Positions 8,423 to 61,066 of a DNA stretch of 64,000 nt are shown piece after piece. Source of the stretch: an uncultured Isosphaeraceae bacterium (GTDB taxonomy: Bacteria; Planctomycetota; Planctomycetia; Isosphaerales; Isosphaeraceae); the NCBI GenBank assembly GCA_963830625.1, contig CAWHMZ010000020.1, positions 1 through 64,000 of the forward strand, given 5' to 3'. The position numbers and the translations under genes were made by a program. The notes under the pieces were generated by a model that had not been told where the DNA came from, searched no databases, and worked only from the letters and a program-made list of their open reading frames with translations. Position 1 is the stretch's first letter. Every line of letters starts with the position of its first letter.

Positions 8423-10472
8423 TCAGAGGTACGTCACGGTGCCATAGATGTTGTCGTTGCTGAAGGAGGCGAAGTTGAGCGCGACCGTCGTTTTCTTGAG
8501 CGTGACCGTGCCGCCGGTGGCGACGTAAAGGCCACCGCCGATGCCGTCGCCGTCGCTGCCACCCGCGCCAGGCAGGCCGCCGAGAGCCAGGTTCAGGGCG
8601 ACATCCGACTGATCGATGGTTGCGAAGCCGTCGGACCCGACGAAGACGGCGCCGCCCCAGCCGTTGCCGCCGTCGGCTCCCGAGCCGCCGCGGCCGCCTT
8701 GGGCCACGTTGCCGATCAGCGAGCTGTTACTGAGGGCGAGCGATGACGTGTCCGAGCCACCCAGGATGCTGTCGATGGCCACGGCAATGGCGCCGCCGAT
8801 GCCGTCGCCGCCGTTGGCCCCTGCGCCGCCGGCGCCGCCGATGGCGAAGTTGCCCAGGAACTTGGTATTGGTGACGGTCGCGGTCGCGTTGTTGCCAAGG
8901 GCGAGACCACCGCCGATTCCATCGCCACCGGCGCTCGCCGCTGGCCCCTGCGCCCCCGATTGCCGCGTTACCAGTCAGCAGGCTGTTGGAAAGCACGAGA
9001 CTCCCGCCGCTGTTGAAGATGCCGCCGCCGATGCCATTGCCACCGGAGCCGCCTCTGGCCTGGTTGTTCATGATGTTGCTGGAGGTGGCGGTCAGCGTAG
9101 CCTGGTTGAAAATGCCGCCGCCGGCGACGGCGGAGTTGCCCCTGATCGTGCAGTTGGTCAGCGTCATCGAGCCGCCGTACGAGTTGTCCAGGCCGCCGCC
9201 GTTGCCGCCGGCGGTGTTGCCGCTGACCGTGCAGTTGGTCAGCGTTGTCGAACTGCCGGAATAGTTGGCCAGGCCGCCGCCGTTGCCGCCAGCGGTGTTA
9301 CCGCTGACCGTGCAGTTGATAAGCGTCGCCGAACCGCCGTAGAAGTTATCCAGGCCGCCACCGTTGGCGCCGGTGGAGTTGCCGCTGATCGTGCAGTTGG
9401 TCAGCGTCATGGCCCCTTTGTTGTACACGCCGCCGCCGCTGTAGATCGTCGAAGTGCTGGAGTTGCCGCTCACGATGCAGTTGATCAGCGTCGCAGAACA
9501 TGTGTAGGAGTTGCCCAGGCCGCCGTCGTAGTCGGCGGTATTATCGCGGATGGTGCAGCCAATCAACGTGGCCGTGCCACCGAATACGGACACGCCGCCG
9601 TCGGCGCCGCTTGAGGCGGAATTGCCGGTAATCTTGCAGTCGATCAGTGTGCTCATGGTCCCCCAGATGACCGCACCGCCGCCGGGGACGCCAATCTCGG
9701 GCATGGTATTCTCGCTAATGGTGCAGTCGGTCAGTGTGTTCGTGCCGTACAGGGACACGCCGCCACCGCCGCCGCTGCTGGCTGTATTGCCGCTGATGGT
9801 GCAGTCGGTCAGCGTGGTCGTGTTATGGCCATAGTAGGACGTGTATATGCCGCCGCCGCCCAAGAAAGTCGCATTGGCGGAGTTGCCGCTGATCGTGCAG
9901 TGGGTCAGCGTAAGCGAACCGGAGGTCTGGTCGAGGCCGCCGCCGGTCCCGGAGGCCGAATTGCCGCTCACCGTGCAGTCCGTCAGTGTGACCGAGCCCC
10001 CGTCGTTGTACAGGCCGCCGCCATTCCCGGTGGTCGAACCCTCCGTGATGGTCAGGCCGCTGAAGTTGGCCGTCACGCCGCCATCCACCTGGAACACCCG
10101 GCTGGCCCCGCCGCCGCTGATGGTTAGATTGCTGGCCCCCAGCCCGTCGATGGTGAGATTCACTCCGATCGTGAGCGGCCCCGAGCTGAGCATGATCGTC
10201 TCCCCCTTGAGACTGTTGGCGAAGTCGATCGTTTCGCCACTGGCGGCCGTGGTGATGGCGGCACGGAGCGACCCCGGGCCGCTGTCCTGGTTGTTGATGA
10301 CCGTCACCGTGCTGAGCAAGGTACGGTCTTCCATCAGAGCCACCCGCGGCAAGAACCGCCGACGACTGGATCGTGTACCGTCGCGCCGTCTCCGCGACAA
10401 GAACCGCGAGCGTGGCACGCTTCCATTCCACGGATTTGCGGACTGGAACATAACAGGTGACTCCTGTTGCAA
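8423..10472 (-). CDS. Right-handed parallel beta-helix repeat protein (about 22-aa 'LTNCTxSGNxAxxGGGL' repeats). Secreted. Frameshifted in the 8750-8950 region.
   Basis: The 581-aa ORF has the N-terminal motif RRRFLPRVALMEDRTLLSTVTVINNQDSGPGSLRAAI followed by many CTISGN/CTVSGN repeats. The C-terminal 119-aa ORF 8423..8782 continues the Gly-rich beta-helix in another frame. Confidence 0.75.
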
Positions 10473-10720: not shown

Positions 10721-13700
10721 TCAGTGAGCCTTTTTCCGGGCGCGGTCGATGAGGGCCTGGACTTCGGCCCAGAGCGCGTTCCATTCTTTTCGCTCGGACT
10801 CGGAGAGCTTCGCGAGGGCCTCGGGACCGCGAACGCAGGCGAGATCGGCGTCGATTTGCGAGTGACGCAGGTGGTTTTGCACCCCAGCGCGGTCTGCCGG
10901 CTTGGCGGTCTCGAGCTGCTTGGCTCGCGCGATCAGGTCGGACCGCAGCCAGTCGAGCGCCTGTTTCCGCAGTCGAGCTCGCTCTTGGTCGTCAAGCTCG
11001 GCTGCGTCCGTGCCTTTCCCGGCGGCGGCCAGAGCGGCGAAACAGGCAGCGTTGTAGCGGTGCGCGGCCTCAAGGTTTTCGGCCAGCTTGGGGTCGGCGG
11101 CGAAGGCTTCGGCGTACAGGCGGGTTGACGTGCGATAGAGCTTCTGGATCTGGGCCCACTCGGCCAGGACGAGGCGTTCGTCGTTGCTCGGCGGCGTGTA
11201 ACTTCCGCCTTTGAAGGCGGGGAGCTTGTCCCGCGCCCCGGCCAATCGCTGCACTCTCGCGAGTTGGTTTCGCGCCGCGACGAACTTCGGGTCGAGCTTG
11301 ATGGCCGTGCGGAAACACGTGATGGATTCGTCGATCCGGCCGATGCCCGCGAGCGTATCGCCCAGGTTCATGTGGGCGTAGAAGTAATTCGGGTCGACCT
11401 CGATGGCCTTCTCGTAGTAGGCGATGGCCTGGTCGACCTGGCCCCTTTGTTTGTGGAGATAACCCAGCTTGTTGTAGGCATCGGCGAAGTTCGGTTCGAG
11501 CTCGATGGCCCTGCGGAAACAGGCGATGGCTTCGTCCACCCGGCCCTTGTCCGTCGAGCGCAATGCCCAAGTTGTTGTGCAAGATCGCGAACTTCGGGTC
11601 GAGCTCGATGGCCTTGCGGAAATTGGCGATGGCTTCGTCGACCTGGCCCTTGTGCGCCGAGCGCACCGCCCAGGTTGATGTAGGCCGGAGCGCACTTCGG
11701 GTCGAGCTCGATGGCCTTGCAGTAACTGGCGATGGCCTCGTCCAGTTGGCCGTGGAGTTGCAGCGCGAAGCCGAGGTTGACGTGGGCCCTCGTGTCATTG
11801 GGCCGATTGCGGACCTTTTCGCTCAACGCGGCAACGGCTCGCTCGAAGAGCGGCCCGGCCTCACCGGCGCGGCCGCGACCCTTGAGATGATTACCGAGGG
11901 AAATCAGGGACAGGGCGTCCTGGGGCCGGCGGCGGACCAGGTCGCGAAAGACCGCCTCGGACTCCTCGTACCGCCCGAGCTTCTCGAGTGCGTGGGCCAG
12001 TGGATCGGCCAGCTCGGGGCGGAGGGCGCGAGCCGCGGCATACGCCGCGATCGCCTCGTCCCGGCGCGGCGGCGTCATCCGCAGGAGCAGTTGGCCCAAA
12101 GTGTACTGGACCCAGACGTCCGTCGGGTGAATGCCCGAGGCGCGGCGCAGCACCCGCACTCCGGCTTCCACGTCGCCAGCCTCGGCAAGCGTGTTCCCGA
12201 GCAGCACCAGGCTCGCCGCCGACCAATCCGCCGCCTCGACACGCGCCGCGAGCGGGCGAACTTGCTCCAGAAACCGTGCCTTGTCGCCGACTGCCAGGGC
12301 TGCGCGGACGGCGTCGCGCAGGGGGTCGGGGTCAGCGGCGCGGGCGACCGCGATAAGCTTGGGCGAATCCTCGTTTTTGGGCTTGAGGCGGCTCTCCCCG
12401 AAGGTCCGGTAATACACGTCCGAGAACGCCGAGCGGCGCAGCGTTTCGGGTCGGGCAGCGCGCACGGTGGTCCAGTCGTCGAGGGCCGCGACCACCGCGC
12501 GGCGCACCGATTCCGGCCGGGCCGTGATCAGGGCCGCTGCCTGCTTCACGTCCATTCCGTCAACATCGATGCCGGCCGCGCGGAAAGCGTCGGAATAGGC
12601 GGCGTCAGTCACCTGGCCGTAGAAGTCGTTCACCTTGGCGCCCCGGATCTCGACCAGCTTGTCCAAGAGCACGCGATCGCGCTTGGCGGCAGCGGCCCCG
12701 GCCTGGACTTCGGCGTCAAGGGCCGCCAGTTGTTGTCGGATGGCGGGGTCGCCGCCCTCGTCCAGGGCCGTCTGGGCGCGTTTCAGGCCCTCCAGCGCCG
12801 TCTGCCAGCGGGCGAGGTCTTCAGGGTACGCCACGGCCTGGTCGCGCAGGCAGCGCCGCTTCCTTGAGCGCCAGTGCCAGCCGCGCCGCTCCCGCTTGGC
12901 GTTGCTGGAGCCAGTATGTCAGTCCGAGACCGCCCACCACTGACAAAGTCAGCAAGCTCGCGGCGACCACGGTCGTCAACCGACGGCGGTCCCGCTCCTC
13001 GACACTGGCCAGCTCGGCCCGCCTCATCCGCTCCTGCACGCTGGCCAGGTAGGCAGTCATCCGCTCGGCGACCGCCGAAGCTTCGTGCGGGCGGTCCTCG
13101 CGCTCGCGGGCGAGGCAGTCCTTCGCCAGCGCGATCAGCTCCGCGTCCGCGCCGGATGAATCCAGACGCTGTAAGGCATCGACCGTGTCACCCAGCGCCG
13201 CCGTGCGCTGGATCTCGGCGGAGCCGCGCCCCGTGAAGGCTGGCTCGCCCGTCAGCACCTCGCAGAGGATCGACCCGAGGGCGAAGACATCGGCCCGCTC
13301 ATCAACCTGGTCGACTTCGCCACGGGCCTGCTCGGCGCCATGTACGAGGGCGTGCCCATGATCGAGCCGGGCGGGACCGGACGGCGTCGGAGTCGGACCC
13401 GGAGCGCGCCGTGGCGATCACCGTCTCGTCGCGGGTCTGGCCCGCGCGGGCGTCGTCGACCACACCGCCGCGCGGCAGCACCTTGGCTAACCCCCAGTCC
13501 ATCACCTGCACTTCACCGAAGCTGCCCACCATCACGTTCGACGGCTTCAGGTCGCGATGGATCACGCCGCGGGCATGGGCGTAGGCCATCGTCTGGCAGA
13601 CAGCTTGGAAGATCACCAGGAATCGAGGCAGGCCGTCGGCAGGTCCGCCGCGCTGGGCCAGGAGCTGCGCCAGGGTGTGCCCCTTGACCAGCTTCATGGC

Positions 13701-47663: not shown

Positions 47664-50600
47664 ATGAAACGGTTCGGGTGGAAGATTGGCTTGATCGTCG
47701 GGTCCACCTTGCTCGGTCTGATTTCGATGTGGCCGCCGAAGCAGAGGCTCAAGCTGGGCATCGATCTCTCGGGGGGGACGATCCTGGTTTACGAAGTCGA
47801 CCGCAAGAACGTGCCGACCGGCTTCAACATGGACGAGCTGATCTCGGCGCTCAAGAAACGCGCCGATCCCGAGGGCGTCAAGGAAATCCCGATCCGCAAG
47901 GTCGGCGGCAATCGCATCGAGATCATCCTTCCTCAGGCCAGCAACGAAGAGGTCGAGGAAGTCAAGAAGATGCTCACCGACGTGGGCTCACTCGAATTCC
48001 GCATCCTGGCCAATCGCAAGCACACACCCGAGGACGTGATCGCTCGCGCCCTGGGCGACCCCAAGATGAAGCCCCCTGCCCGCTACAAGTGGGCGCGGCT
48101 GGGCGAGATCTCGACCGGGACGAACCCAACGTTCACGAAAGACACGATCACCGATCTCCAGCAGTCGTGGAAGAAGGACCTCTACGCCGGCACGATCGTG
48201 CAATTGACCGGCAAGGATACGACGGGTACCGAACGGACCGAGATGGTCAAGGTCCGCCGCAACACCACCAACACGCTGATCCTCGACAAGCCGCACGGTC
48301 TCAAGTCGATCTCGTCCTATCGGGTCGTCTATAACCCGAGCGCCATTTCGCGCGGCGACCCGACCAATCCGCGCCCGGAAGACGTGATCATCCGGGAAGA
48401 GAAGGTCGATAACGGCCGGATCGAGACCTGGATCTTGTGCAATCTCGATCGACAGGGCCAGGAAGTCACCGGCAAATATTTGCGGCAGGTTCGCCCCGAC
48501 GTCGATGAGAGGCTTCAGCCGGCGGTCCGCTTCGAGTTTGATTCGCGGGGCGCGACCCGGTTCGCACGCCTGACGCGCGAGCACAAACCGGAAGAGGGCG
48601 GCAATTTTCGCTATCAACTGGCGATCCTGCTCGACAACCTGGTGATGTCGGCCCCGGCGATCAACTCGGAGATCCGCGACTCGGGAATCATCGAGGGGGG
48701 CCAGCAAGGGTTCAAGCCCAAGGAAGTCGAGCACTTGGTTCAGGTTCTCCGGGCCGGCAGTCTGCCCGCGAGCTTGAACCCCGATCCCTTGGTCGAGGAA
48801 AAAGTCGGCCCCACGCTCGGAGACGACACGATCGCCAAGGGACTGTTCGCGATCTGGGTTTCGCTCATGGTCGTTCCGATCTTCATGGTGATCTATTATC
48901 GCTTCGCGGGCGTCGTGGCGGTGGTCGCGCTCCTTGTGAACATGATCTTGCTCGTCGGTTCGATGGCCCAGATTCAAGCCACGTTTTCGCTGCCGGGGCT
49001 TGCCGGGCTGGCACTCACGATCGGCATGGCGGTGGACGCGAACGTGCTTGTCTTCGAGCGCATGCGCGAAGAGAAAGAACGCGGCGCCAGCCTGGCCCAG
49101 CAGATCCGCAACGGGTTCAACCGAGCGTGGGTCACGATCTTCGACTCGCACGTCACCAATTTTCTGGCGGCGCTCGTGCTCTTCGTCGTCGGGACCGAGG
49201 AGGTCAAGGGATTCGCCCTGACGATGATCATCGGCATGGCCTGGAACTTGTTCACGGCCGTGTTCATGTCGCGCGTGATCTTCGAGTATTGCTATGCCCG
49301 CGGCTGGCTCAAGAACGTGACGATGCTCAAGATGCTCGGCAAGACCAACATCGACTTCATCGGCCCGCGCTACATCTGCATGGCGGTCTCGCTCGTCTTG
49401 ATCGTCGCCGGGCTGGTCGCCAGCGCGGTTCGCAACAAGGGAATGTTCAATATCGACTTCACCGGCGGCACGCTGGTGACGATCAGGCTCAACGAGAACG
49501 ATCCGACCGTCGCGCGCTTGAACGAGTCGCAGCGAGCACAGCTCGTACGCCAGAAGGCGAGCGTATTACCCGACGTGACCGTTGAGAGCCTGCGGATCGG
49601 CGACGACAAGAACGTGACGCGGTTCAACATCCGCACCACCGCCGACAAGATCGATACGGTCAGGGACGCGATCTTGGCGTCGTTCGGTACCAGCCTGTCG
49701 CAGGTCGAGATGACTGCTGGCGAAGGCCGGCCCATTGCGGCCGCACCCGCGCCCGCGGGAGGAGAAGCCGGCAAAACGGCGGCCTCCGCGGCGCAGCGGT
49801 TTGCCGGCGGCCGCGAATACGTGTTGGGCTTCAATACGGCCGCCTTCCCCACTGGCGAACCCCCCGCGCAAGTCGTCTCGGCGCTCTTCACCAAGGTGCT
49901 CGAAGAAGACAAGATCGCCAACGCCAGCGCGCGGTTCGTGATCATCCCGAGCACTGATCGGAGCGGTGCCGCCACCGAGGCATCAACAACCCAGCAGGGC
50001 GCAGCGACCGAGCTCATCCTCCGAACCGATCTCGAGCCCGAAGTCACCAAGGCCGAGCTGGCCAAGCTCAAGGAGCGACTGGCCAACGATAAAGACCTCC
50101 TCTTCGAGCGCATCACCAACTTCGGCGGGACAGTCGCCGCCGAGACCCGGGTTCTCGCCTTGATCGCCACGGTGGCGAGCTGGATCATCATCATCGCCTA
50201 CCTCTGGTGGCGGTTCCACTCGTTCACTTACGGGCTTGCCGCCGTGCTAGCCGTGGTTCACGATGTCTTGATCACGCTGGGCGCGATCGCTTTTAGCTAC
50301 TGGCTCGCCAAGGTGCCGGGCTTGAGCACTCTGCTTCAGATCGATCAATTCAAGATCGACTTACCGATTGTGGCGGCGTTCCTGACTCTGATCGGTTTCT
50401 CGGTCAACGACACCATCGTGATTTTCGACCGAATCCGCGAAATCAAGGGGAAGACCCCTCAACTGACGAACAAGATGGTCAACGATGCGCTCAACCAGAC
50501 GTTGAGCCGAACCATACTCACATCGTTCACCGCCTGGCTGGTCGTGGTCATTCTCTACTTCTTCGGCGGGGAGGGGCTGCACGGCTTTGCCTTTGCCCTG

Positions 50601-50723
50601 GTCGTCGGTTTCTTGAGCGGCACCTACAGCACGGTCTACATCGCGACGCCGATCTTGATCGACTGGGTGGCCAACAAGCCTGAGCCCGCGAAGGCCGGCA
50701 AGAAACTGGCCTCGGTGCGCTGA
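47664..50723 (+). CDS. secDF: Protein translocase subunit SecDF (fused SecD-SecF), intact 1019 aa.
   Basis: A single uninterrupted ORF with SecD and SecF TM blocks (...GLALTIGMAVDANVLVFERMREE...; ...AVVHDVLITLGAIAFSYW...GFSVNDTIVIFDRIRE...). Confidence 0.9.
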   Translation: MKRFGWKIGLIVGSTLLGLISMWPPKQRLKLGIDLSGGTILVYEVDRKNVPTGFNMDELISALKKRADPEGVKEIPIRKVGGNRIEIILPQASNEEVEEVKKMLTDVGSLEFRILANRKHTPEDVIARALGDPKMKPPARYKWARLGEISTGTNPTFTKDTITDLQQSWKKDLYAGTIVQLTGKDTTGTERTEMVKVRRNTTNTLILDKPHGLKSISSYRVVYNPSAISRGDPTNPRPEDVIIREEKVDNGRIETWILCNLDRQGQEVTGKYLRQVRPDVDERLQPAVRFEFDSRGATRFARLTREHKPEEGGNFRYQLAILLDNLVMSAPAINSEIRDSGIIEGGQQGFKPKEVEHLVQVLRAGSLPASLNPDPLVEEKVGPTLGDDTIAKGLFAIWVSLMVVPIFMVIYYRFAGVVAVVALLVNMILLVGSMAQIQATFSLPGLAGLALTIGMAVDANVLVFERMREEKERGASLAQQIRNGFNRAWVTIFDSHVTNFLAALVLFVVGTEEVKGFALTMIIGMAWNLFTAVFMSRVIFEYCYARGWLKNVTMLKMLGKTNIDFIGPRYICMAVSLVLIVAGLVASAVRNKGMFNIDFTGGTLVTIRLNENDPTVARLNESQRAQLVRQKASVLPDVTVESLRIGDDKNVTRFNIRTTADKIDTVRDAILASFGTSLSQVEMTAGEGRPIAAAPAPAGGEAGKTAASAAQRFAGGREYVLGFNTAAFPTGEPPAQVVSALFTKVLEEDKIANASARFVIIPSTDRSGAATEASTTQQGAATELILRTDLEPEVTKAELAKLKERLANDKDLLFERITNFGGTVAAETRVLALIATVASWIIIIAYLWWRFHSFTYGLAAVLAVVHDVLITLGAIAFSYWLAKVPGLSTLLQIDQFKIDLPIVAAFLTLIGFSVNDTIVIFDRIREIKGKTPQLTNKMVNDALNQTLSRTILTSFTAWLVVVILYFFGGEGLHGFAFALVVGFLSGTYSTVYIATPILIDWVANKPEPAKAGKKLASVR

Positions 50724-50800: not shown

Positions 50801-51625
50801 TCAGAGTCTCAGGACCTGTCCACCGAAAAGCCGAGTGCGGCGGTTGTCGACTTCCAAGCACAGCGCCCCTTCGGCGTCGATTCCCCGGCCCCATCCCGCC
50901 ACGATCGATGCGCCCAGGTCGACCGTCACCCAGCGATCGCGGAGATGATCGAGTTGCTCCCACCGCTTTGCAAGCGATGCATCATCGCTCGCCAACTGGA
51001 CCAACACAGACTCGAGGCGCGTCAAGATCGCCGTCAAGAATTGCGGTATCAATTCTTCAGAAAGCGGTTCGTCTCGAAGCTCAGCCAGTGAGACCGCCAT
51101 TCTGCGAACCTCCGCGGGCGCGCCGCCAAGATCACTCAGCACGTTCAGCCCGATGCCGATGAGCAGCCGGCGTCCCCGCTCGGTCTCGATCTGCTCGGAC
51201 AAGATGCCGCCGAGCTTGCCACCGGCGGCCTCGAGATCGTTGGGCCACCGGATTCCGATTGACGGCACCGCCAACGCCAGATCGCCAAGCGCGTCAATGA
51301 TTGCCACGGCCGTCGCGAGTGCGATCCGCGGCTCATGCACCAGAGAAAGGCCGTACAACTGCGGGTCGATGGCCACGGTGAAGGTCAAGCTTCCGCGGTC
51401 GGACCACCACCGGCGACTGCCTCGCCCCCGTCCCCGCGACTGGCTTCTGGCCCAGACCAGAAGCGGCAAAGCGGGACCGCCATCCAGCACCAGTTCGCGC
51501 GCGCGGTCACTCGTTGAATCGACGTCGTCGTCGATCACCGTCGTCCGAACAAACGGCCAGCCGAATTCATGGTCCATGGAAAAGGAACAGGCAACCCACC
51601 CCTGATTGTGATCGCAAGCCTGCAC
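50801..51625 (-). CDS. birA: Biotin--[acetyl-CoA-carboxylase] ligase.
   Basis: IRWPNDLEAAGGKLGGILSE and the overall BPL_LplA_LipB pattern. The N-terminal extent is uncertain (the likely start is MDHEFGW at about 51577). Confidence 0.7.
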   Translation of the reverse strand: MQACDHNQGWVACSFSMDHEFGWPFVRTTVIDDDVDSTSDRARELVLDGGPALPLLVWARSQSRGRGRGSRRWWSDRGSLTFTVAIDPQLYGLSLVHEPRIALATAVAIIDALGDLALAVPSIGIRWPNDLEAAGGKLGGILSEQIETERGRRLLIGIGLNVLSDLGGAPAEVRRMAVSLAELRDEPLSEELIPQFLTAILTRLESVLVQLASDDASLAKRWEQLDHLRDRWVTVDLGASIVAGWGRGIDAEGALCLEVDNRRTRLFGGQVLRL

Positions 51626-51661: not shown

Positions 51662-52810
51662 TCATGAAGCGGCCAGCCCAAGAGGCGCCGTGCCAGCGGC
51701 CGAATCGCCGATTCGCGGCGCCTCCGGAACGCTCGGCAAGCGATAGAGCCCGGCGAGGCTGACTGCGAGCACGACCAGCACGATCACGATGGTTGCGATT
51801 GTTAGAGGGGCCAGCGCGATGGCGAACACGAACAACACCAGGGTGAGCCGCGTGAGCCCGCGCTTGGAGCGGTCGCTCAGTCCCCCGTGTTCTTCCCACT
51901 CGGTCAGAATGGGGCCGAAGAACGACGACCGGCGCAGCTGCGCGTTCATCTCGGACGAGGACCGCGCGAGGAAGTAGCTCGTCGCGAGCAAGAACGGGAC
52001 CGTGGGAATGCCTGGCACCACAAGCCCCACGATCGTCATCACCGCGGAGGTGCCCGCCAGGCAGAGGTACATGAATCGGTTCGCCCAAGGGGCGACCTCC
52101 GCGCTTACCCTTCTGGCGAGGAATCCGGTCGCGCTTGGGGCCGGCGCACATGCATCGACTTCCTCGAAGATCCGTTCCAGCTCGTCCCAGAACGTGCTTG
52201 AGATCTCACTCGCCCGCTGTAGCTCGATTGCGATCCGATCGGGCTTTGGCAGAATTCGGCAGCTCTTGACCTGTTGCAGGCCCAGCAGTGCCTCGGCCAC
52301 GCGGGCTTGCCGGTCGGGGCTCGCGGCGAGCTTGCCATTCCGCAGCCCGAACTGACCTGGCTCGGCTTCGAGGGTTTCCCAGAGAGAAACCTCTCCCTGC
52401 AGTGGATACGCATGCAAGGTCAGCCACTCCGTTTCGGCCGGGCGACCAAACACACGCGCCGCGCCGCTCGGTAGCCCCGCTTGGCGGACCAAATCGGCGA
52501 ACGTCTCGGCGATGTCGTGAGCGCCGAGACTCCCCGCGTCGAAATCGATCTGGCACGATGCCGAAGCCAGATCGACTTCCCCCTTCCGAACACTCGGCCG
52601 GCGTACCGCGGCCTCGACCAATCGCCGGCAAAACGGCCGCCTCTTGATGTTGATCAGTCGCGGGTCGCGAACCCGAATCAAGCCAGCCGATTCATCGATT
52701 TCGATGGAGGGCGCGACATGCGGGGAGTCGTTTTCTGTCTGGACAACATGCTCCGCTGCCGCAAGGTTCGTCGTTTTGGACTTGCGCACGTGATTCTCCG
52801 CACCAGGCAT
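51662..52810 (-). CDS. Membrane protein with a C-terminal DUF454/YbaN-like domain and an N-terminal extension of unknown function.
   Basis: ...LVVPGIPTVPFLLATSYFLARSSSEMNAQLRRSSFFGPILTEWEEHGGLSDRSKRGL..., followed by TM helices. Confidence 0.55.
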   Translation of the reverse strand: MPGAENHVRKSKTTNLAAAEHVVQTENDSPHVAPSIEIDESAGLIRVRDPRLINIKRRPFCRRLVEAAVRRPSVRKGEVDLASASCQIDFDAGSLGAHDIAETFADLVRQAGLPSGAARVFGRPAETEWLTLHAYPLQGEVSLWETLEAEPGQFGLRNGKLAASPDRQARVAEALLGLQQVKSCRILPKPDRIAIELQRASEISSTFWDELERIFEEVDACAPAPSATGFLARRVSAEVAPWANRFMYLCLAGTSAVMTIVGLVVPGIPTVPFLLATSYFLARSSSEMNAQLRRSSFFGPILTEWEEHGGLSDRSKRGLTRLTLVLFVFAIALAPLTIATIVIVLVVLAVSLAGLYRLPSVPEAPRIGDSAAGTAPLGLAAS

Positions 52811-53064
52811 CGCGAAATCGAGCGTCCTTAGTCTTCCTCATTGTCACCAATATTTGCCGTACTTCGCCAGTCTTCACTGGTCTCCCAAGGCCTCATCGCC
52901 TCTGGCGGCCGATCACAGCACGCACTTTGTTGTCGCGGGGGCCGCGCCGTCGAGCCGCGGTCGCCACGGCAAAGTGGTGGCTCGCCGAGCGTATTGTGCT
53001 GAGACAGCTTAAGATTCGTGGCGGGCTTGCTCGAAGCGCCGATCGGACGCTAGATTTGAGGAAG

Positions 53065-53137
53065 GCGCCCGTAGCTCAATGGATAGAGTCGCGGACTTCG
53101 AATCCGAAGGTTGTAGGTTCGAATCCTACCGGGCGCG
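53065..53137 (+). tRNA. tRNA-Arg (anticodon TCG).
   Basis: Manually folded. 7-bp acceptor stem GCGCCCG/CGGGCGC. D-arm with GG. Anticodon stem CGGA/TCCG with loop CTTCGAA (U33, anticodon TCG, A37). T-arm GTAGG-TTCGAAT-CCTAC. Discriminator G. A promoter-like TTGCTC-17-TAGATT lies upstream. Confidence 0.85.
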
Positions 53138-53429
53138 TTTGGCGGCAGACCAGCAAGACGATCGTGGTGCTTGAAAAAGCCGTACTAGGATCCCAGCAAG
53201 ACGCCAAGGCCAGAGACGCCCAGATCGCCAAGATGATGGCAACCCTTGAGGCAATGGAAAGCAACCGCAAGACAATGCCCCATTGACCGTTCGCGAGCCT
53301 CCCACAGCGTCTGCCGGCCGACATGCCGGTTGTAGGGCATTTTTCGCGCGGGCGCTTTATGCGTCGAAGATTGGAGCCTATTGCAGCGCACTGGTAATTT
53401 TGGGCAGCGTTCGCGAACCGCCCACGTTT

Positions 53430-53850
53430 GGGTTGCGCCGCCGTCGTCGTCGTTTCGGAGCCCTCGGAGCGGGGCGACATCACGTAGCCTGCGGTGTGAA
53501 CCGCAGGTCAGGTTGCGAATCGCTGGCATTTGGGTTGCGCCGCCGTCGTTTCGGAGCCCCCGGAGCGGGGCGACATCACGTAGCCTGCGCTGTGAACCGC
53601 AGGTCTGGCATTTGTGTTGCGTCGTCGTCGTTTCGGAGCCCGCGGAGCGGGGCGACATCACGTAGCCTGCGGTGTGAACCGCAGGTGTGGCATTTGTGTT
53701 TTGTCGTCGTTTCGGAGCCCGCGGAGCCGGGCGACATCGCGTAGCCTGCGGTGTGAACCGCAGGTGTGGCATTTGTGTTTTGTCGTCGTTTCGGAGCCCG
53801 CGGAGCGGTGCGACATCACGTAGCCTGCGGTGTGAACCGCAGGTCAGCCG
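53430..53850. repeat. Five tandem copies of an ~82-bp unit. Each contains the hairpin CCTGCGG-TGTGAA-CCGCAGG (7-bp stem, 6-nt loop).
   Basis: Units start at about 53430, 53525, 53606, 53691 and 53768. A conserved ~62-nt core (cgtcgtttcggagccc.cggagcggggcgacatcacgtagcctgcggtgtgaaccgcaggt) plus an ~20-nt variable head (tggcatttgtgtt...). Confidence 0.85.
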
Positions 53851-53957
53851 GACGTCATCCGATCCCCGCCGAGATCGCGCGTTCACGGCCGCGGATCGAC
53901 CCGGCGTATGCCATGGGCGGAAAGCGCACCCATCCCCGCCCTAAAACATGTTTTCCT

Positions 53958-54088
53958 ACATACAATATGCGGCCTTTTCTGATTTTCTCTAACGCGTCTC
54001 AGCCGAAAAGCGTGCAATGCCATGCTGGAAGTGATTGGCCGCTCTCGGGATACTTTTTTTTGACTAAAAATAATTCGGAACCATTTTA
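53958..54088. repeat. ~130-bp direct repeat, left copy (right copy at 56024-56152). AT-richer. Contains TTGACT...ATTTTAAC, which looks like a promoter.
   Basis: About 88% identity between the copies (ctacatacaatatgcggcc...gggatacttttttttga.taa.aaaata..gaaccatttt). Confidence 0.8.
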
Positions 54089-54234
54089 ACGCCGGCCGCG
54101 GCCCGTTTGGCAGCTCCTTCGAGAAAGTGGTGAGTAGAAAGTAGACCGCAGCAGAGCGGGCGACGGTCTCGGCAAAGAAAGTAGAAAGGAGTGAGTAGAC
54201 CGCAGGAGAGCGGGCTGGCCTGCTCCCCAAAAAT

Positions 54235-55482
54235 TGGTCCGGCCGAAATGAGAGTCTCCCGGTAGGATGAGCCACGGAGGGACTCATGAGAAGGCGAAGG
54301 ACCGCCGAGGAAGTGGCACGCTTGCTGCGTGAAGCCGACCACGACCTGGCCAAGGGACTGACAGTCTCTGACATCTGCCGCAAGCAGGGCTTTGCCCAGG
54401 CTACCTATTACAAGTGGCGGCAGCGGCAGGCGCCCGGCCAGGATGCTACCGATCGCCGCTGCCGCGAGCTGGAAGGCGAGCTCGACCGCCTCAAGAGGCT
54501 GGTGGCTGATTTGCTCCTGGACAAGGCGATGCTCCAGGAGATCGCAAAAAAAAAGTGGTGACACCTAACGAGCAACGAACCGCCGCGGATTTCCTGGGAG
54601 AGCACTTCGGGGTCTCTCAGCGGCGGGCGTGCCGTGTGATGGATCGCTCTCGCTCGACCTTGCGGTATCGCCGCAAGCGCCGGGCTGACGAGCCGGCATT
54701 GAGCCGGGAGATGAAACGCTTGGCGCGTCGGCATCCGCGTTACGGGTACCGGCGAATCCATGCCCTCCTGCTCCGGCGTGGCTGGTCGGTCAACCTCAAA
54801 CGGGTGCGGCGGCTCTGGAATGAGCTGGGACTGCGTTGACCGTTGAGGCTGAGAAAAACGAGAAAACTGGGCCCCAAACCGGGGGTCAGCGCCAACAGTT
54901 GCGTCCAGCAACCGGCGAAGTTCAAGAACGACGTTTGGACCTGCGACTTCATCCACGATCGGACCGCCAGCGGTCGTCCTCTCAAGTGGTTGACGCTGGT
55001 GGACGAATATACTCGGGAGTGCCTGGTCCTGCACCCAGCCGAGTCGATAAGGGGAGCTGATGTTCGTCGGATCTTGGCCCGGGTGATCGGTCGTCGCGGG
55101 GCGCCGACCCGCATCAGAAGCGACAACGGATCGGAATTCATTTGCGAGGCTTTGGTGGGTTGGCTGCCAAGGGCGGGGGCCGACCCAATCCCGGTGGCAC
55201 CAGGAAGCCCTTGGGAGAACGGATATATCGAGTCATTCCACAGTCGGTTGCGCGACGAGTTCCTAGAGCGGGTAGAATTCGAGGACGTCGCGGACGCTCG
55301 AGCAAAGGGGGCCTGGTACCGGCGGGAATACAACGCGGTGCGGCCGCACAGTTCGTTGTCGTATGCGACGCCGAACGAATTCAGTGCAGCCTGCGATCGG
55401 AAGGAGAATCGGAAAAGGCTTGTTGCATAGTGACAAGTTGATCTGCACAGTCGTTGAACGAACTCTCATTAGCCGTGGACCA
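54235..55482 (+). mobile_element. IS3-family insertion sequence. orfA is 54286..54561. orfB (DDE/rve) is 54555..55430 and carries an in-frame TGA at about 54836-54838. Slippery A9G site at 54546-54555. Terminal IRs TGGTCCGGCCGAAATGAGAG / CTCTCATTAGCCGTGGACCA.
   Basis: OrfA has an HTH and a leucine zipper (...LKRLVADLLLDKAMLQEIAKKKW*). OrfB has ...VWTCDFIHDRTASGRPLKWLTLVDEYTRECL...RIRSDNGSEF...PGSPWENGYIESFHSRLRDE.... The ends are TG...CA. The element sits between inverted tandem sub-repeats at 54100-54220 and 55500-55620. Confidence 0.85.
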
Positions 55483-56023
55483 AAAAACGGGTGCAGCCCA
55501 GGGCGGCGGCTTCCTTGCTCTCCTCACTACTTTCTCAGCTCTCCTGCTCTATTTTTCGGCCCGTGGCCGAAAAATGGTCTCCTTACTACTTTCTCCGCTC
55601 TCCTGCTCTATTGCCGCTTCGCGGCAATTGTCAAGTTCCGAAATAGCGGCGGAATCTGGCGTAAATTGAATCGACTCCTGCACTTCTGTGCTCCTCTTGG
55701 TTTCATCGAAATTGGCTTCGTTCGTCGCATTTTCGTCGATTTCGGCGATCGCGATCATGTCGTCGCGGTGCTGGTGCACGCTGTCTGCATCAATGGCGGC
55801 GGCGCTAGCGATTGACAGACGCCCTTCTTTTGCACGATTGGAAGCCACGGACGCGCGTGGTTTGTAAGGCCGTCTATACCATTGATGAGTGGCCGCCGGC
55901 AAACGCCGTCAAGCGATGGGTCTGTGAAATTCTGCTCGATTGGATTTGCTCGATTGCTGATGTGGCTGTTCAAGGGCTCCGCCGTTCGTCGGCGGATCGC
56001 GGCAGGCGTCGCGCGCGCGTTCT

Positions 56024-56152
56024 ACATACAATATGCGGCCTTTTTCTATTTTCTCTAACGCGACCAAGCCGAAAACTGTGCAATGCTATGCTGGAAGTGA
56101 TTGGCGGTTCTCGGGATACTTTTTTTTGAATAAGAAAAATAGCGAACCATTT
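56024..56152. repeat. ~130-bp direct repeat, right copy.
   Basis: See 53958-54088. Confidence 0.8.
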
Positions 56153-56543
56153 TGCGCACTGCACGTCGCCTTTATGCACTTACTGCGATCTCGGGTTTGT
56201 CGAGTAACTCATTCCGTTTTGAGATCTGCAAATCCGTCGGGTCCGGCTGTAGCGGTTCTGCGGGCGCGATCCGCCGCGCAGCTCGCGATTTCAAACCGAG
56301 ACACTACCCGCCGGCCGTTTCGGCAAATCGGGCGCATGTGCCCTATCGCCGTTGACGCGCGGTGGGCGCGCGATCACAAGGCGCGTTCAATAGAAGGTTA
56401 CAATTCGGGGTGGCTGGGATCGACGCCCGCGGGTTCTTTTTGGTGTCTTTCGCTCCGCGAAAAAACGGGCTTTCGCGGAGCGAAAAGGCGACTTTCGAGT
56501 CCGACTCGGGCGGGATCTACTCGCAGGTTGGGTTCATCGATCA

Positions 56544-58478: not shown

Positions 58479-58759
58479 AATTCCTGGACTCTACGGTGAA
58501 CCAGCGTCTGTCACGTAAAGACTTCGGCGCTTCGGCCGCCACTACGCCAGTACGATGTGAATTTGGCCTGCAACTCACGCGATGCAATGCATTTTCCGAA
58601 TTTGCCGCGCGGCTGCAACGCTCTTGCGACACTGACGCTTTATCAAATTGTTCCCGCCTTCGCGTGTCCGTCAACGGCAAAGAGGATCAAGCGCGGGGTG
58701 TCCGGAGCCCTCGTCGAACTAGCACGCCTGTGTCCTCTTGCCCCCTTGTCGTTGTTGTC

Positions 58760-59200
58760 GCCGACGTGAATCGGCATGTGCACGTCTTCGATGCAGTGGA
58801 TCAGGAACCGCAGCGCGAACCGCCGTTCCTCAACCGTCTTGCTCTGGTCCTTGATCACGAGCCGGAACTCCTTGATCTTGTCGACCACGCAGCCTTTGTC
58901 TGGGACGTCGCCGCTGAACTTCTTGTCATACTTGGGTTCGTCGAGGGGCACGTCGACGTAGTGCCACGGGGCTGTCTTGGGCAGCTCCCGGCGGTGCTCG
59001 TCGGCCCAGGTTGACGCGTCGGCCAGCGATTCGCCTGGCTCTAGCAGAGCGGCGACACCGGCCTTTGCGGTGGGAACCATGTGCTTGTCGGCGAGCCGAG
59101 AGATGACGCGGTGGCCGAGGCGGCCCCAAGCCCAGCAGGGCGTGGCCTGCAAGGTGACCAACAGCGCGACGATCAGGGTAAGGCGAAGCGTGCGGCCCAT
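58760..59200 (-). pseudogene. S1/P1 nuclease gene, 5' part only (about 147 of an expected ~270 aa). Homology ends abruptly near 58760.
   Basis: ATG at 59200. Signal peptide MGRTLRLTLIVALLVTLQATPCWA, then WGRLGHRVISRLA...ASTWADEHRR...APWHYVDVP...IHCIEDVHMPIHVGDNNDKG, then unrelated sequence. Confidence 0.65.
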
Positions 59201-59787
59201 GTCGTTACTCCGCCGTTGGTGTGTCGGTCCGGCCGAAGAGGATTGATTATGGCAACCATGGTCGAGCGCGGCAACCGGGTTGTTGGGCCTGCCGCTCGAC
59301 TCGCGCCCCCCGCTCTGGCACACTGATATCTGCCCAGCTGTGCGACGACGCGGAAGTGTCGGGCTGGGGTGGCTCGTCGTCGATGACACGCTGACGCGTG
59401 ACATGAAGTCGTCGGCGGGTCTTAACTCCGTCGGCTGGAGTGGGCTCCTCCAATCGTCCGGCCCCGACATCATCAGAGAACGGTTGCGCCGATGTTCAGG
59501 GTCAGCCACCTAGACGGAGATGTTACCGATGTCCTCTCGGTCGATCGTATCGAGCCCGTGACCCGTTCGGGCCCGCTAGTATGTCGCTGCCACATCGACG
59601 AGATCATCGCCGATCCGCTGCCGGCAGGTTCTACGTCGCGGCGCTGGGGTGTCGGCATCCAGCGGGCTGATGGATCGGTGGTGATCGAGCATGATCGGTG
59701 GTAAGCAAAGAGATTCTGAGGGGGCGTTGACAATGGTCAACTTTCTGAAGCGTAATTGCGCTTTGCTCTTCAACTTTCTGAACCTAC

Positions 59788-61066
59788 TGAAGTGGACCCC
59801 AAAAACTGGACAGCAAACGAGGTAAGTTTCGCTAGACGTGGACAGTATGCGCGAACCCCCTGCGGTTGGTGGACCGTGAGTTTTCGAGGCTCTCCTGGAA
59901 CACCTCCCACGGCGTTCGGTATCCCAGGCCTTGATGCTTGCGCTCGTACGTGTAGAAGTCGAAGTACTGTGTGAGGCCCGTTTCCAGATCGGCGACAAGG
60001 TCGTACACCTTGAGGTAAATCTCCTCGTACTTCACGCTACGCCAGAGGCGCTCAATAAACGCGTTGTCCAACGCGCGTCCGCGTCCGTCCATGCTGATTG
60101 CCACACCGTGGCTCTGCAGGCGCATCGTGCACGCTTCGCTGGTGTACTGGCTTCCTTGGTCGCTGTTGAAGATATCGGGCCGGTATTGGTCCAGAGCTTC
60201 GTCCAGGGCTTCCACGCAGAACGACGTGTCCATCGTGTTGGACAATCGCCAAGCCAGGACATGCCGACTGTACCAATCCATGATCGCCACCAGATACATG
60301 AATCCGTTCCTCATCGGCACGTAGGTGATGTCGCTGCACCAGACCTGGTTCGCCCGATCGATTGTCAAGCCGCGCAGCAGGTATGGATACACCTTATGGC
60401 CCGGGGCGGGAATCGTCGTTTTTCGCGGGTAAATGGCCTCGATGCCCATCAGCCTCATGAGCCGCTGGATGCGCTTGCGGTTGATGGGACTTCCCTCCTC
60501 TCCCAAATGCAGAGCCATCCGCCGGCTGCCATAGAATGGCGTTCGGAGGTGCTGGCTCGTCGATCCGACGCATCAGCATCAGGTCCTCTTCAGTCGCCGC
60601 GGCCGGCGAGTAGTAGTACGTGCTCCGCGGCAGGCCCAGCAGCTCGCACTGTCGTGCGATGCTGATCCGCGGCTCGGCCGGATCGATCCAGCGGCGTAAC
60701 TCAGATGCCCCCCTTGGCAAATTTTTTTTTGAGCCAATCCAGCTCGACGTTTAGCCGGCCAATCTGCTCGTAGAGTTCTGCCTGCGAAACAATCTCCTCG
60801 GTTCGCCGCTCCGCCCCGTCGAAGACGGTTCCTGCTTCCTCGACGAGTCGCTTCTTCCACTGATGAACCAGCGTGGAATGAATCCCGAACCGCTTAGAGA
60901 TTTGCCCAAGCGTCTCCCGCTCCTTGATTGCTTCCAGTGCGACGCGCGCCTTGAATCCCGACTCGTACCGCTTCTTGCGCTTGGCCATTGCGTGCCTCCA
61001 TGCACACGGGTCCTGCCACTGCCAAGCTCTAGCTTAACCTGCTGTCCAGTTTTTGGGGTCCATTTC
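59788..61066 (-). mobile_element. Second IS3-family insertion sequence. orfA is 60701..60988. orfB is split into 60394..60720 and 59832..60518 (an extra frameshift at about 60500). A9 slippery run at 60722-60730. ~40-bp terminal IRs beginning TGAAGTGGACCCCAAAAACTGGACAGCA. Flanked by a 3-bp TAC duplication.
   Basis: OrfA MAKRKKRYESGFKARVALEAIKERETLGQISKRFGIHSTLVHQWKK (HTH). OrfB ...VWCSDITYVPMRNGFMYLVAIMDWYSRHVLAWRLS...FNSDQGSQYTS...NAFIERLWRSVKYEEIY (DDE). The IRs at 59788-59835 and the reverse complement of 61029-61066 match. TAC is present on both flanks. Confidence 0.85.

Follow-up and report, generated by a model that had tools for sequence, protein, structure and literature searches.

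A tandem array of Acido-Lenti-1 modules in an Isosphaeraceae contig is probably a REP-like repeat cluster, and its family is associated with Y1 transposases

There are five head-to-tail, non-coding repeat units (53413..53844, minus strand) downstream of a tRNA-Arg(TCG) gene in the first 64,000 nucleotides of contig CAWHMZ010000020.1 from an uncultured Isosphaeraceae bacterium, a stretch that we call the window. Each unit carries a copy of Acido-Lenti-1, the two-hairpin motif of the Rfam family RF01687. With a probability of roughly 0.75, we regard this array as a cluster of Acido-Lenti-1 modules resembling repetitive extragenic palindromes (REPs) and bacterial interspersed mosaic elements (BIMEs), formed by local amplification. 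We do not think that it is a gene or a regulatory site. For the window the outcome is deflationary, because the array appears to be selfish or neutral repeat DNA and neither a tRNA-linked site nor a regulatory RNA, and annotation pipelines should therefore not call five small-RNA (sRNA) genes here. The array itself is ordinary, and what is apparently new is the link, seen at the level of the family, between this motif and transposases of the Y1 type.

A repeat search of the window finds 5 in-register copies with spacings of 96, 82, 79 and 79 bp, and Tandem Repeats Finder assigns 53544-53844 a period of 79 bp (94% matches). The hairpin core GTAGCCTGCGGTGTGAACCGCAGGT is present five times when at most one mismatch is allowed, compared with an expectation of 0.00 from shuffles, and no copy of it lies outside the array in the 64 kb window. 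Likewise, a covariance model run with filters off detects no further diverged copies of the motif in the window, which thus holds one cluster only. An earlier description made from the letters alone, here termed the sequence-only reading, had recognised a non-coding, five-copy tandem satellite with a conserved hairpin, and both the repeat search and the core count bear this out. Its fixed unit of 82 bp does not survive, in that the real units span 79-96 bp, and the units are pairwise 90-96% identical instead of 85-95%. Adjacent units are most alike, with U4 and U5 sharing 96% identity versus 90% for U4 and U2. Variation had been assigned exclusively to a head of ~20 nt; it is indeed concentrated, largely as indels in GAC/GGC triplet runs in the unit alignment, but in a 30-47-nt tail/head region whose versions are homologous to each other rather than unique.

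Viewed on the minus strand, which is the orientation of the Rfam model, each unit consists of hairpin 1, a linker of 12-13 nt, hairpin 2 and a tail of 30-47 nt. Hairpin 1 has the 7-bp stem and 6-nt loop that had been noticed earlier, or 8 bp and 4 nt if the closing T-A pair is counted. The GC-rich conserved core of the sequence-only reading is also present, and proves to hold a second short hairpin, GCCC[C/G]-GCTCCG-[C/G]GGGC. Both hairpins are predicted in the units, and equally well on either strand.

The five motif copies, all on the minus strand, were scored against RF01687 in a permissive Rfam scan (E 2e-6 to 4e-4) and against R1, a covariance model built from 58 diverse copies of the family, which all five match with 39.7-46.9 bits. 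The copy nearest the tRNA gene, U1 (53459..53507; RF01687 38.4 bits, R1 46.6 bits), is alone in passing the RF01687 gathering score of 37 bits, and U2-U5 fall below it with E values of 7e-6 to 4e-4. Copy U2 (53555..53603; 29.9 and 39.7 bits) has a single G.G mismatch in hairpin 1, and its hairpin 2, GCCCC-GCTCCG-GGGGC, is completely paired. The folds of U3 (53637..53685; 36.3 and 46.9 bits) and U4 (53716..53764; 34.5 and 44.6 bits) are both predicted, and in U4 a C-to-G change gives a hairpin 2, GCCCG-GCTCCG-CGGGC, that again pairs completely. The last copy, U5 (53795..53843; 32.8 bits with E=6.8e-5, and 45.3 bits), consists of hairpin 1 CCTGCGGT-TCAC-ACCGCAGG, the linker CTACGTGATGTCG and a hairpin 2 of the form GCACC..GGGC with one mismatch. 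From the unit alignment, the tail of U1, which serves as an example of the variable spacer, occupies 53413..53458, and those of the other units lie at 53509-53554, 53605-53636, 53687-53715 and 53766-53794, again on the minus strand. Every tail reads CTCCGAAACGACG, then a (GAC/GGC)n run, then CAAC[AC]CAAA.

Between the tRNA gene and the array there is an 18-nt direct repeat (CGTTCGCGAGCCTCCCAC at 53288 and CGTTCGCGAACCGCCCAC at 53408) and, at 53319-53335, a CGACAT..GTAG string. We considered whether this repeat of the U1 head, together with the string, marks a decayed extra unit at 53288-53407, but neither covariance model backs it.

The units reproduce the architecture of RF01687: hairpin 1, with CC...GG feet, has a stem of 8 bp and a loop of 4 nt, the conserved linker CUA..AUG.CG is 12 nt long, and a short GC hairpin comes second. 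Its seed alignment contains tandem runs from Lentisphaera araneosa with periods of 69, 74, ~110 and ~192 nt (PMC2864571), and two copies from the planctomycete Rhodopirellula baltica (NC_005027). The linker CTA-N4-ATG-N-CG of the Rfam strand corresponds, on the other strand, to CG-N-CAT-N4-TAG directly 5' of the hairpin. Every unit of the window reads ...CGACATCACGTAG on the plus strand and the hairpin follows at once, with GTAG immediately 5' of hairpin 1 in 5/5 units. Judged from these sequences, the plus-strand arrangement is a REP-like layout, in which the hairpin has a conserved motif at its 5' foot.

To place the array we sampled 184 related loci, 104 of them chosen by motif and 80 by protein homology. 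A degenerate pattern, with loop and linker fixed and three stem pairs left free, yields 104 stretches when one genome per species is scanned. The matches are mostly in metagenome-assembled genomes (MAGs) of Planctomycetota, and the others come from Cloacimonadota, Acidobacteriota and Desulfobacterales. Although their sequences differ, the free (N) stem positions are nearly always complementary. A structure-aware scan then counts 211 copies in 98 loci, with at least two copies in 54 of these. The copies are intergenic, in that 26% fall within open reading frames (ORFs) against a background coverage of 79%. The family is scattered between the genes of Planctomycetota, Acidobacteriota, Cloacimonadota, Lentisphaerota and members of other phyla. 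The sequence-only reading had said that genome-wide scattering as a generic REP-like element would refute its own view, and such scattering is found at the family level, where in several MAGs the copies are spread over 6 to 9 or more contigs.

Neighbouring copies of the family occur in two arrangements. There are 23 cases of same-strand pairs 65-96 nt apart, and 34 cases, from several phyla, of divergent pairs ~137-178 nt apart. The divergent pairs form palindromic composites of ~200 nt that have the Rfam motif at both outward-facing ends and, in their interior, an inverted pair of 'ATGNCG + hairpin 2' modules. At the foot of hairpin 1, where REPs have a conserved GT[AG]G tetranucleotide, the family has NTAG or NCAG. 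The first base varies, the second is mostly T (70% of copies) or C (24%), and the AG at the third and fourth positions is fixed, but the scan itself required GGCT.

RF01687 was rated 'probably RNA' when it was described, with no function assigned (Weinberg et al. 2010, PMC2864571), and Rfam labels it 'Gene; sRNA'. This label fits a suggestion of the sequence-only reading that the array encodes small RNAs, either as separate genes or as one processed precursor, whose products would be two-hairpin minus-strand RNAs that act in trans. The match of the units to RF01687 on a single strand (minus) and the strong covariation in the stems are also what such genes would show. In the family, 98.3% of stem cells are paired and 11/13 pairs change on both sides, although these figures are inflated by a descriptor scan that pre-selects paired stems.

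However, several other features contradict an RNA of this kind. Family copies lie on both strands, including inverted pairs within ~150 nt, and the two strands of the units fold equally well. Among family copies G.U pairs are nearly absent and are no commoner than A.C (7 vs 7 in hairpin 1 and 8 vs 23 in hairpin 2), and one-sided changes of this kind number 3 in 754 cells of the covariance alignment. At least 27 of the 89 RF01687 seeds read CCUAG[CU]...[GA]CCAGG, which places A.C at pair 4-17 on the annotated strand and a G.U/G.T wobble on the opposite one. Many hairpin-1 loops of the seed are, again on the opposite strand, GNRA-like (GUGA, GUAA, GCAA, GGAA, GAAA). From these sequences, the strand annotated by Rfam may not be the one that folds. 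In the array region there are 0 promoter-like sites, and the 2 terminator-like sites are at chance level (1.8 expected). The paucity of G.U pairs, the copies on both strands, the equal folding and the lack of promoter-like sites or an excess of terminator-like ones in this region point to a palindrome at the DNA level rather than to an RNA from one strand. The motif is also tightly tied to a DNA transposase, as described below, and is absent from the orthologous locus of a relative. We therefore consider an sRNA array very unlikely. Similarly, an array of terminators, which had also been suggested, or of promoters was rejected on the site counts just given.

The link to a transposase is apparent in both directions. 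In five loci a small ORF is bracketed by outward-facing motif copies; four of the five ORFs encode IS200-like Y1 (HUH) proteins (PF01797, E 1e-25 to 1e-46), and in the fifth locus the Y1 gene is on the other strand. A Y1 gene is present in 10/104 of the motif-selected loci, and motif copies abut the gene in nine. Copies that flank Y1 genes score 30-58 bits on RF01687. For the reciprocal test, 80 metagenomic loci were picked solely by homology to the Y1 proteins. A strict motif copy occurs no more than 300 nt from the gene in 42 of these, and on both sides in 30, while an R1 covariance match (E<=0.01) is found in 62/80. In this protein-selected set the density of copies drops ~44-fold, from 2.11 per kb close to the gene to 0.048 per kb at distances above 1 kb. 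The geometry is stereotyped, with a minus-strand copy ~45-90 nt upstream and a plus-strand copy ~45-70 nt downstream of the gene. On the upstream side the copy closest to the gene lies on the minus strand in 33/36 cases, and on the downstream side the closest copy lies on the plus strand in 28/36.

One locus, L041, shows how the composites relate to the gene-bearing elements. Its 204-nt composite corresponds to a neighbouring 776-nt element, which carries the gene, reduced to its first 93 and last 95 nt, and the composites are therefore non-autonomous derivatives with internal deletions. The two ~95-nt ends of the element are inverted repeats of each other. Direct arrays are also found next to the gene, with six copies attached to a Y1 gene in both L056 (66-nt period) and L148 (72-88-nt period). 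The architecture of these two arrays, a motif plus a short spacer, is the same as that of the window array.

Higher-order repeats adjoin the Y1 gene in two loci. In L019 (2187-3132) and L041 (4871-7300), plus and minus copies of two hairpin-1 types alternate with super-periods of ~275-420 nt and ~326 nt, respectively, in a manner reminiscent of BIME organisation in E. coli. In a further locus, L026 (495-1415, plus strand), there is a 306-aa ORF with two tandem Y1 domains, each having HUH and Y---Q--HH, that is bracketed by motif copies. Either this ORF encodes a fused dimer, or a gene duplicated in tandem has been read as a single ORF.

The transposases are ~150 aa long, and all ten share HUH, WQ and Y---Q--HH. 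Across the family the motifs are DH[IV]H, WQ and YIxNQxxHH, accompanied by a conserved C-terminal tail. Scores with the NCBIfam IS200/IS605 model NF033573 are 70-130 bits (cutoff 55), PF01797 is likewise above its cutoff, and the best PDB matches are the TnpA proteins of ISDra2 and IS608. By their sequence motifs, the proteins carry the signature of TnpA-Y1 subclass 1.2.

For the family, we lean slightly towards the view that Acido-Lenti-1 is the DNA recognition module of a hitherto unrecognised, multi-phylum system similar to REPtrons, served by TnpA-Y1 enzymes of subclass 1.2, in which arrays arise as single strands of unit length are gained and lost by Y1 catalysis. The hairpins would fold on single-stranded DNA, for example at the replication fork. 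From the sequence associations, we infer that the module is a target of the cognate Y1 enzyme, which would bind the hairpin and the adjoining linker and then cut and rejoin the strand. Each element end holds ~1.5 periods of '[ATGNCG-hairpin 2]-spacer-[hairpin 1-linker-hairpin 2]', and therefore whole periods might be gained or lost. Slippage during replication or unequal exchange could bring this about, as could Y1 cleavage and ligation at equivalent sites of neighbouring same-strand units, and the gain of periods would yield direct arrays like that of the window.

One alternative for the array is a passive minisatellite, wherein a module arrived once, as a solo copy or as an element end, and was then amplified by slippage or unequal recombination with no Y1 enzyme taking part, in a genome that may have lost the gene for one. 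The window indeed lacks a Y1 gene or remnant by tblastn and by a profile search with --max in all six frames (best E=0.6). The indels between units fall in simple triplet runs, as is typical of slippage, and the greater similarity of neighbouring units noted above is as expected. REP families also outlive the loss of their transposase gene (PMC6006769). On the other hand, direct arrays with periods of 65-96 nt recur beside Y1 genes in the unrelated loci L056, L148 and L182, which hints at the enzyme without proving its involvement. We give the passive route an appreciable but minor chance. It differs from the explanation that we favour only in the amplification step.

The array begins ~280 bp downstream of the tRNA-Arg(TCG) gene (53065-53137, plus strand), close to the ~300 bp reported in the sequence-only reading, which had drawn from this position the idea of an array of attachment or arm sites. 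These would serve the integrase of a genomic island inserted at tRNA-Arg. The array does lie at the edge of a stretch rich in insertion sequences (IS), where GC content passes from 0.59-0.68 upstream to 0.53-0.60 at 55.5-58.5 kb, and the lower values continue over 55.5-61.5 kb. Moreover, synteny with a related locus, L185, appears to break exactly at the tRNA gene. Nevertheless, the ORFs examined between 53.8 and 63.2 kb include no tyrosine integrase, their transposases being exclusively of the DDE-type IS3 group, and the 3' end of the tRNA gene is not duplicated, since its 3' 22-mer is found once in the window even with up to three mismatches allowed. A tRNA gene lies within 8 kb in 1/60 family loci, so that adjacency to a tRNA gene is not a property of the family, which is associated with the Y1 transposase instead. 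The adjacency in the window is coincidental, and we see hardly any prospect that the array is an attachment site. Under the explanation that we prefer, its position would reflect insertion into a variable, IS-rich intergenic region and not a function linked to the tRNA.

L185 is the closest relative that could be retrieved (its DUF454 protein is 64% identical), and its segment 3330-3835 was compared with 52811-53430 of the window. It keeps the divergent DUF454/tRNA-Arg(TCG) pair, yet the motif is absent after the orthologous tRNA-Arg gene. Judged from this single and rather distant relative, the array was therefore added to a variable region in the lineage of the window. Downstream of the tRNA gene L185 has a 60-aa ORF and a fatty-acid hydroxylase gene, and no homologue of the hydroxylase occurs among the annotated ORFs of the window downstream of the tRNA gene.

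The absence of the array in L185 also bears on possible host use, in which the array would act as a transcriptional insulator, a terminator or an RNA stabiliser between the tRNA-Arg gene and downstream DNA. The units provide stable hairpins downstream of a tRNA gene with which they are co-oriented on the plus strand, and REP clusters of E. coli are reported to affect mRNA stability and termination (PMC3733652, PMC8266576). Terminator-like sites are at chance level, however, and such a putative role would be a secondary effect compatible with a REP-like origin. We consider it unlikely.

Several observations weigh against the interpretation that we favour. The window has one motif cluster and no Y1 gene, and both the dispersal of the motif and its cognate enzyme are seen at the family level only. 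BIMEs of E. coli alternate in orientation, whereas the window array has a single orientation. By sequence, the transposases of the family are IS200/IS605-like and are not canonical REP-associated tyrosine transposases (RAYTs). Their scores with the RAYT model NF047646 are 20-41 bits, with a cutoff of 80, and 2/6 have no match at E<=0.001; the PDB search does not match the structure of the E. coli RAYT. The pre-selection behind the covariation figures and the reliance of the synteny comparison on one distant genome count on the same side.

Other interpretations of the array were set aside. The periods of 79, 82 and 96 bp were taken as not being multiples of 3, and the array is therefore not regarded as a protein-coding repeat; a 233-aa ORF that overlaps it has no Pfam match. 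As the sequence-only reading had also concluded, it is not a CRISPR array because the segments between the hairpins are homologous to each other, and there are no cas genes among the ORFs examined. The AUG of the linker might be taken for a start codon with AGG as its Shine-Dalgarno sequence, but the G is conserved in only 64%, and the downstream frame is not conserved and shifts between units. The sequence GGTTCACACC has some likeness to a tRNA T-arm, but neither ARAGORN nor Rfam gives a tRNA-like match on the units. Finally, the RNA repeats of a type III toxin-antitoxin system were rejected because the adjoining ORFs include no toxin candidate with a family match, although this is a weak test.

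The surroundings of the array are as follows. Upstream of the tRNA gene, ORF annotation places SecDF (47664-50723, plus strand), a biotin/lipoate ligase family protein (50801-51625, minus strand) and the DUF454 protein (51662-52810, minus strand). Downstream of the array there is an IS3-family element (54234-55483) with 22-nt inverted repeats at 54234-54255 and 55462-55483. Its parts are orfA with HTH_Tnp_1 (54286-54561), HTH_21 (54555-54839) and rve (54843-55430). Around this element, two direct repeats of ~40 nt (54122-54215) have their mirror image in two inverted copies at 55516-55612, and a 132-nt direct repeat that is 87% identical (53956-54087 and 56022-56153) brackets the whole structure. 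The region 53956-56153 looks like an IS inserted in another repeat element, or like one whose ends are long and multi-site. Another fragment of an IS3-family transposase (rve, HTH_21; 59832-60518, minus strand) adjoins an S1/P1 nuclease gene (58643-59509, minus strand), and 55.5-61.5 kb looks like a variable, IS-rich region that begins right after the tRNA-Arg gene. Elsewhere in the window there are other long-period tandem repeats, at 9114-9410 (81 bp x 3.7 copies) and 11281-11742 (103 bp x 4.5 copies). These lie in regions with long ORFs of high GC3 and are probably repeat-containing proteins.

If the proposal for the family is correct, it would supply a concrete and testable function for an Rfam motif left orphaned since 2010, provide the missing DNA partner for a Y1 subclass that was described in 2018 as being without REPs, and broaden the range of REPtron-type systems to include a two-hairpin module and deep-branching phyla. 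More broadly, it bears on the domestication of HUH transposases and on how short repeats spread and persist in bacterial genomes. We found nothing in the literature searched that links RF01687 to REPs or to Y1 transposases, and the connection at the family level appears to be undescribed.

Among the closest known elements is RF01687 itself, with which the units share the same two hairpins, the 12-nt linker and the conserved nucleotides CC..GGCUA..AUG.CG. They differ in having a 6-nt loop in hairpin 2 where the Rfam motif has 3 nt, and in that what Rfam labels an sRNA is here a module of a larger DNA repeat tied to a Y1 transposase. The genes of the family qualify as IS200-family Y1 transposases, but the hairpins of IS200/IS605 elements are on the same strand and subterminal, with no terminal inverted repeats (TIRs), whereas the flanks in this family are inverted. 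REPINs and miniature inverted-repeat transposable elements (MITEs) are non-autonomous doublets in which two inverted ends are joined and the transposase gene is missing. The family has composites of this kind, of ~200 nt, but the window array differs from them in having five same-strand units without an inverted partner. For tandem amplification, a parallel is offered by the BOX elements of Streptococcus pneumoniae, dispersed modular repeats in which tandem amplification of the internal boxB (45 nt) gives copy numbers that vary. The analogy is purely functional; the sequence, the host and the presumed mobilising enzyme are unrelated.

Another comparison is with TIRtrons, in which the Y1 genes (TIRYTs) have long TIRs, some of them 'double palindromic' (Di Nocera et al. 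2013, PMC3733652). The repeats are moderately abundant, occur as dimers or clusters, and have hosts that include Acidobacteria; Rfam is mentioned 0 times in that paper. We do not take TIRYTs to be the same system because their proteins carry the class-2 Y...NP motif, a separation made at the protein level. On the enzyme side, the comparison is with TnpA-Y1 subclass 1.2, which the family transposases resemble in their length of ~150 aa and in the key motifs of Table 1 of PMC6006769. That paper describes the subclass as low-copy and mainly cyanobacterial or from Bacteroidetes, and its Table 1 gives 'REP: no' (Quentin et al. 2018, PMC6006769), whereas here the genes are motif-flanked in the 62 loci with an R1 match and come from Planctomycetota, Cloacimonadota and other MAGs.

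In its organisation the family resembles the REPtron, where inverted repeats flank a Y1 gene and also occur elsewhere as non-autonomous copies and clusters (PMC6006769, PMC8266576), as described for REPs, BIMEs and REPINs with their RAYTs (Nunvar 2010; Bertels & Rainey 2011, PMC3116915; Ton-Hoang and co-workers, PMC8266576). Differences exist in that the module comprises two hairpins and a conserved 12-nt linker and not one hairpin, the foot motif across the family is only NTAG or NCAG, and the enzyme is an IS200-like protein of subclass 1.2 and not a class-2 RAYT with the motif YIxxNP. At the family level, the units are short, palindromic, intergenic and multi-copy, and a conserved motif lies directly before the hairpin, reading GTAG on the plus strand of the window. 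Inverted copies in the family also flank a low-copy HUH/Y1 gene, and non-autonomous inverted doublets and clusters occur, as they do in REPtrons.

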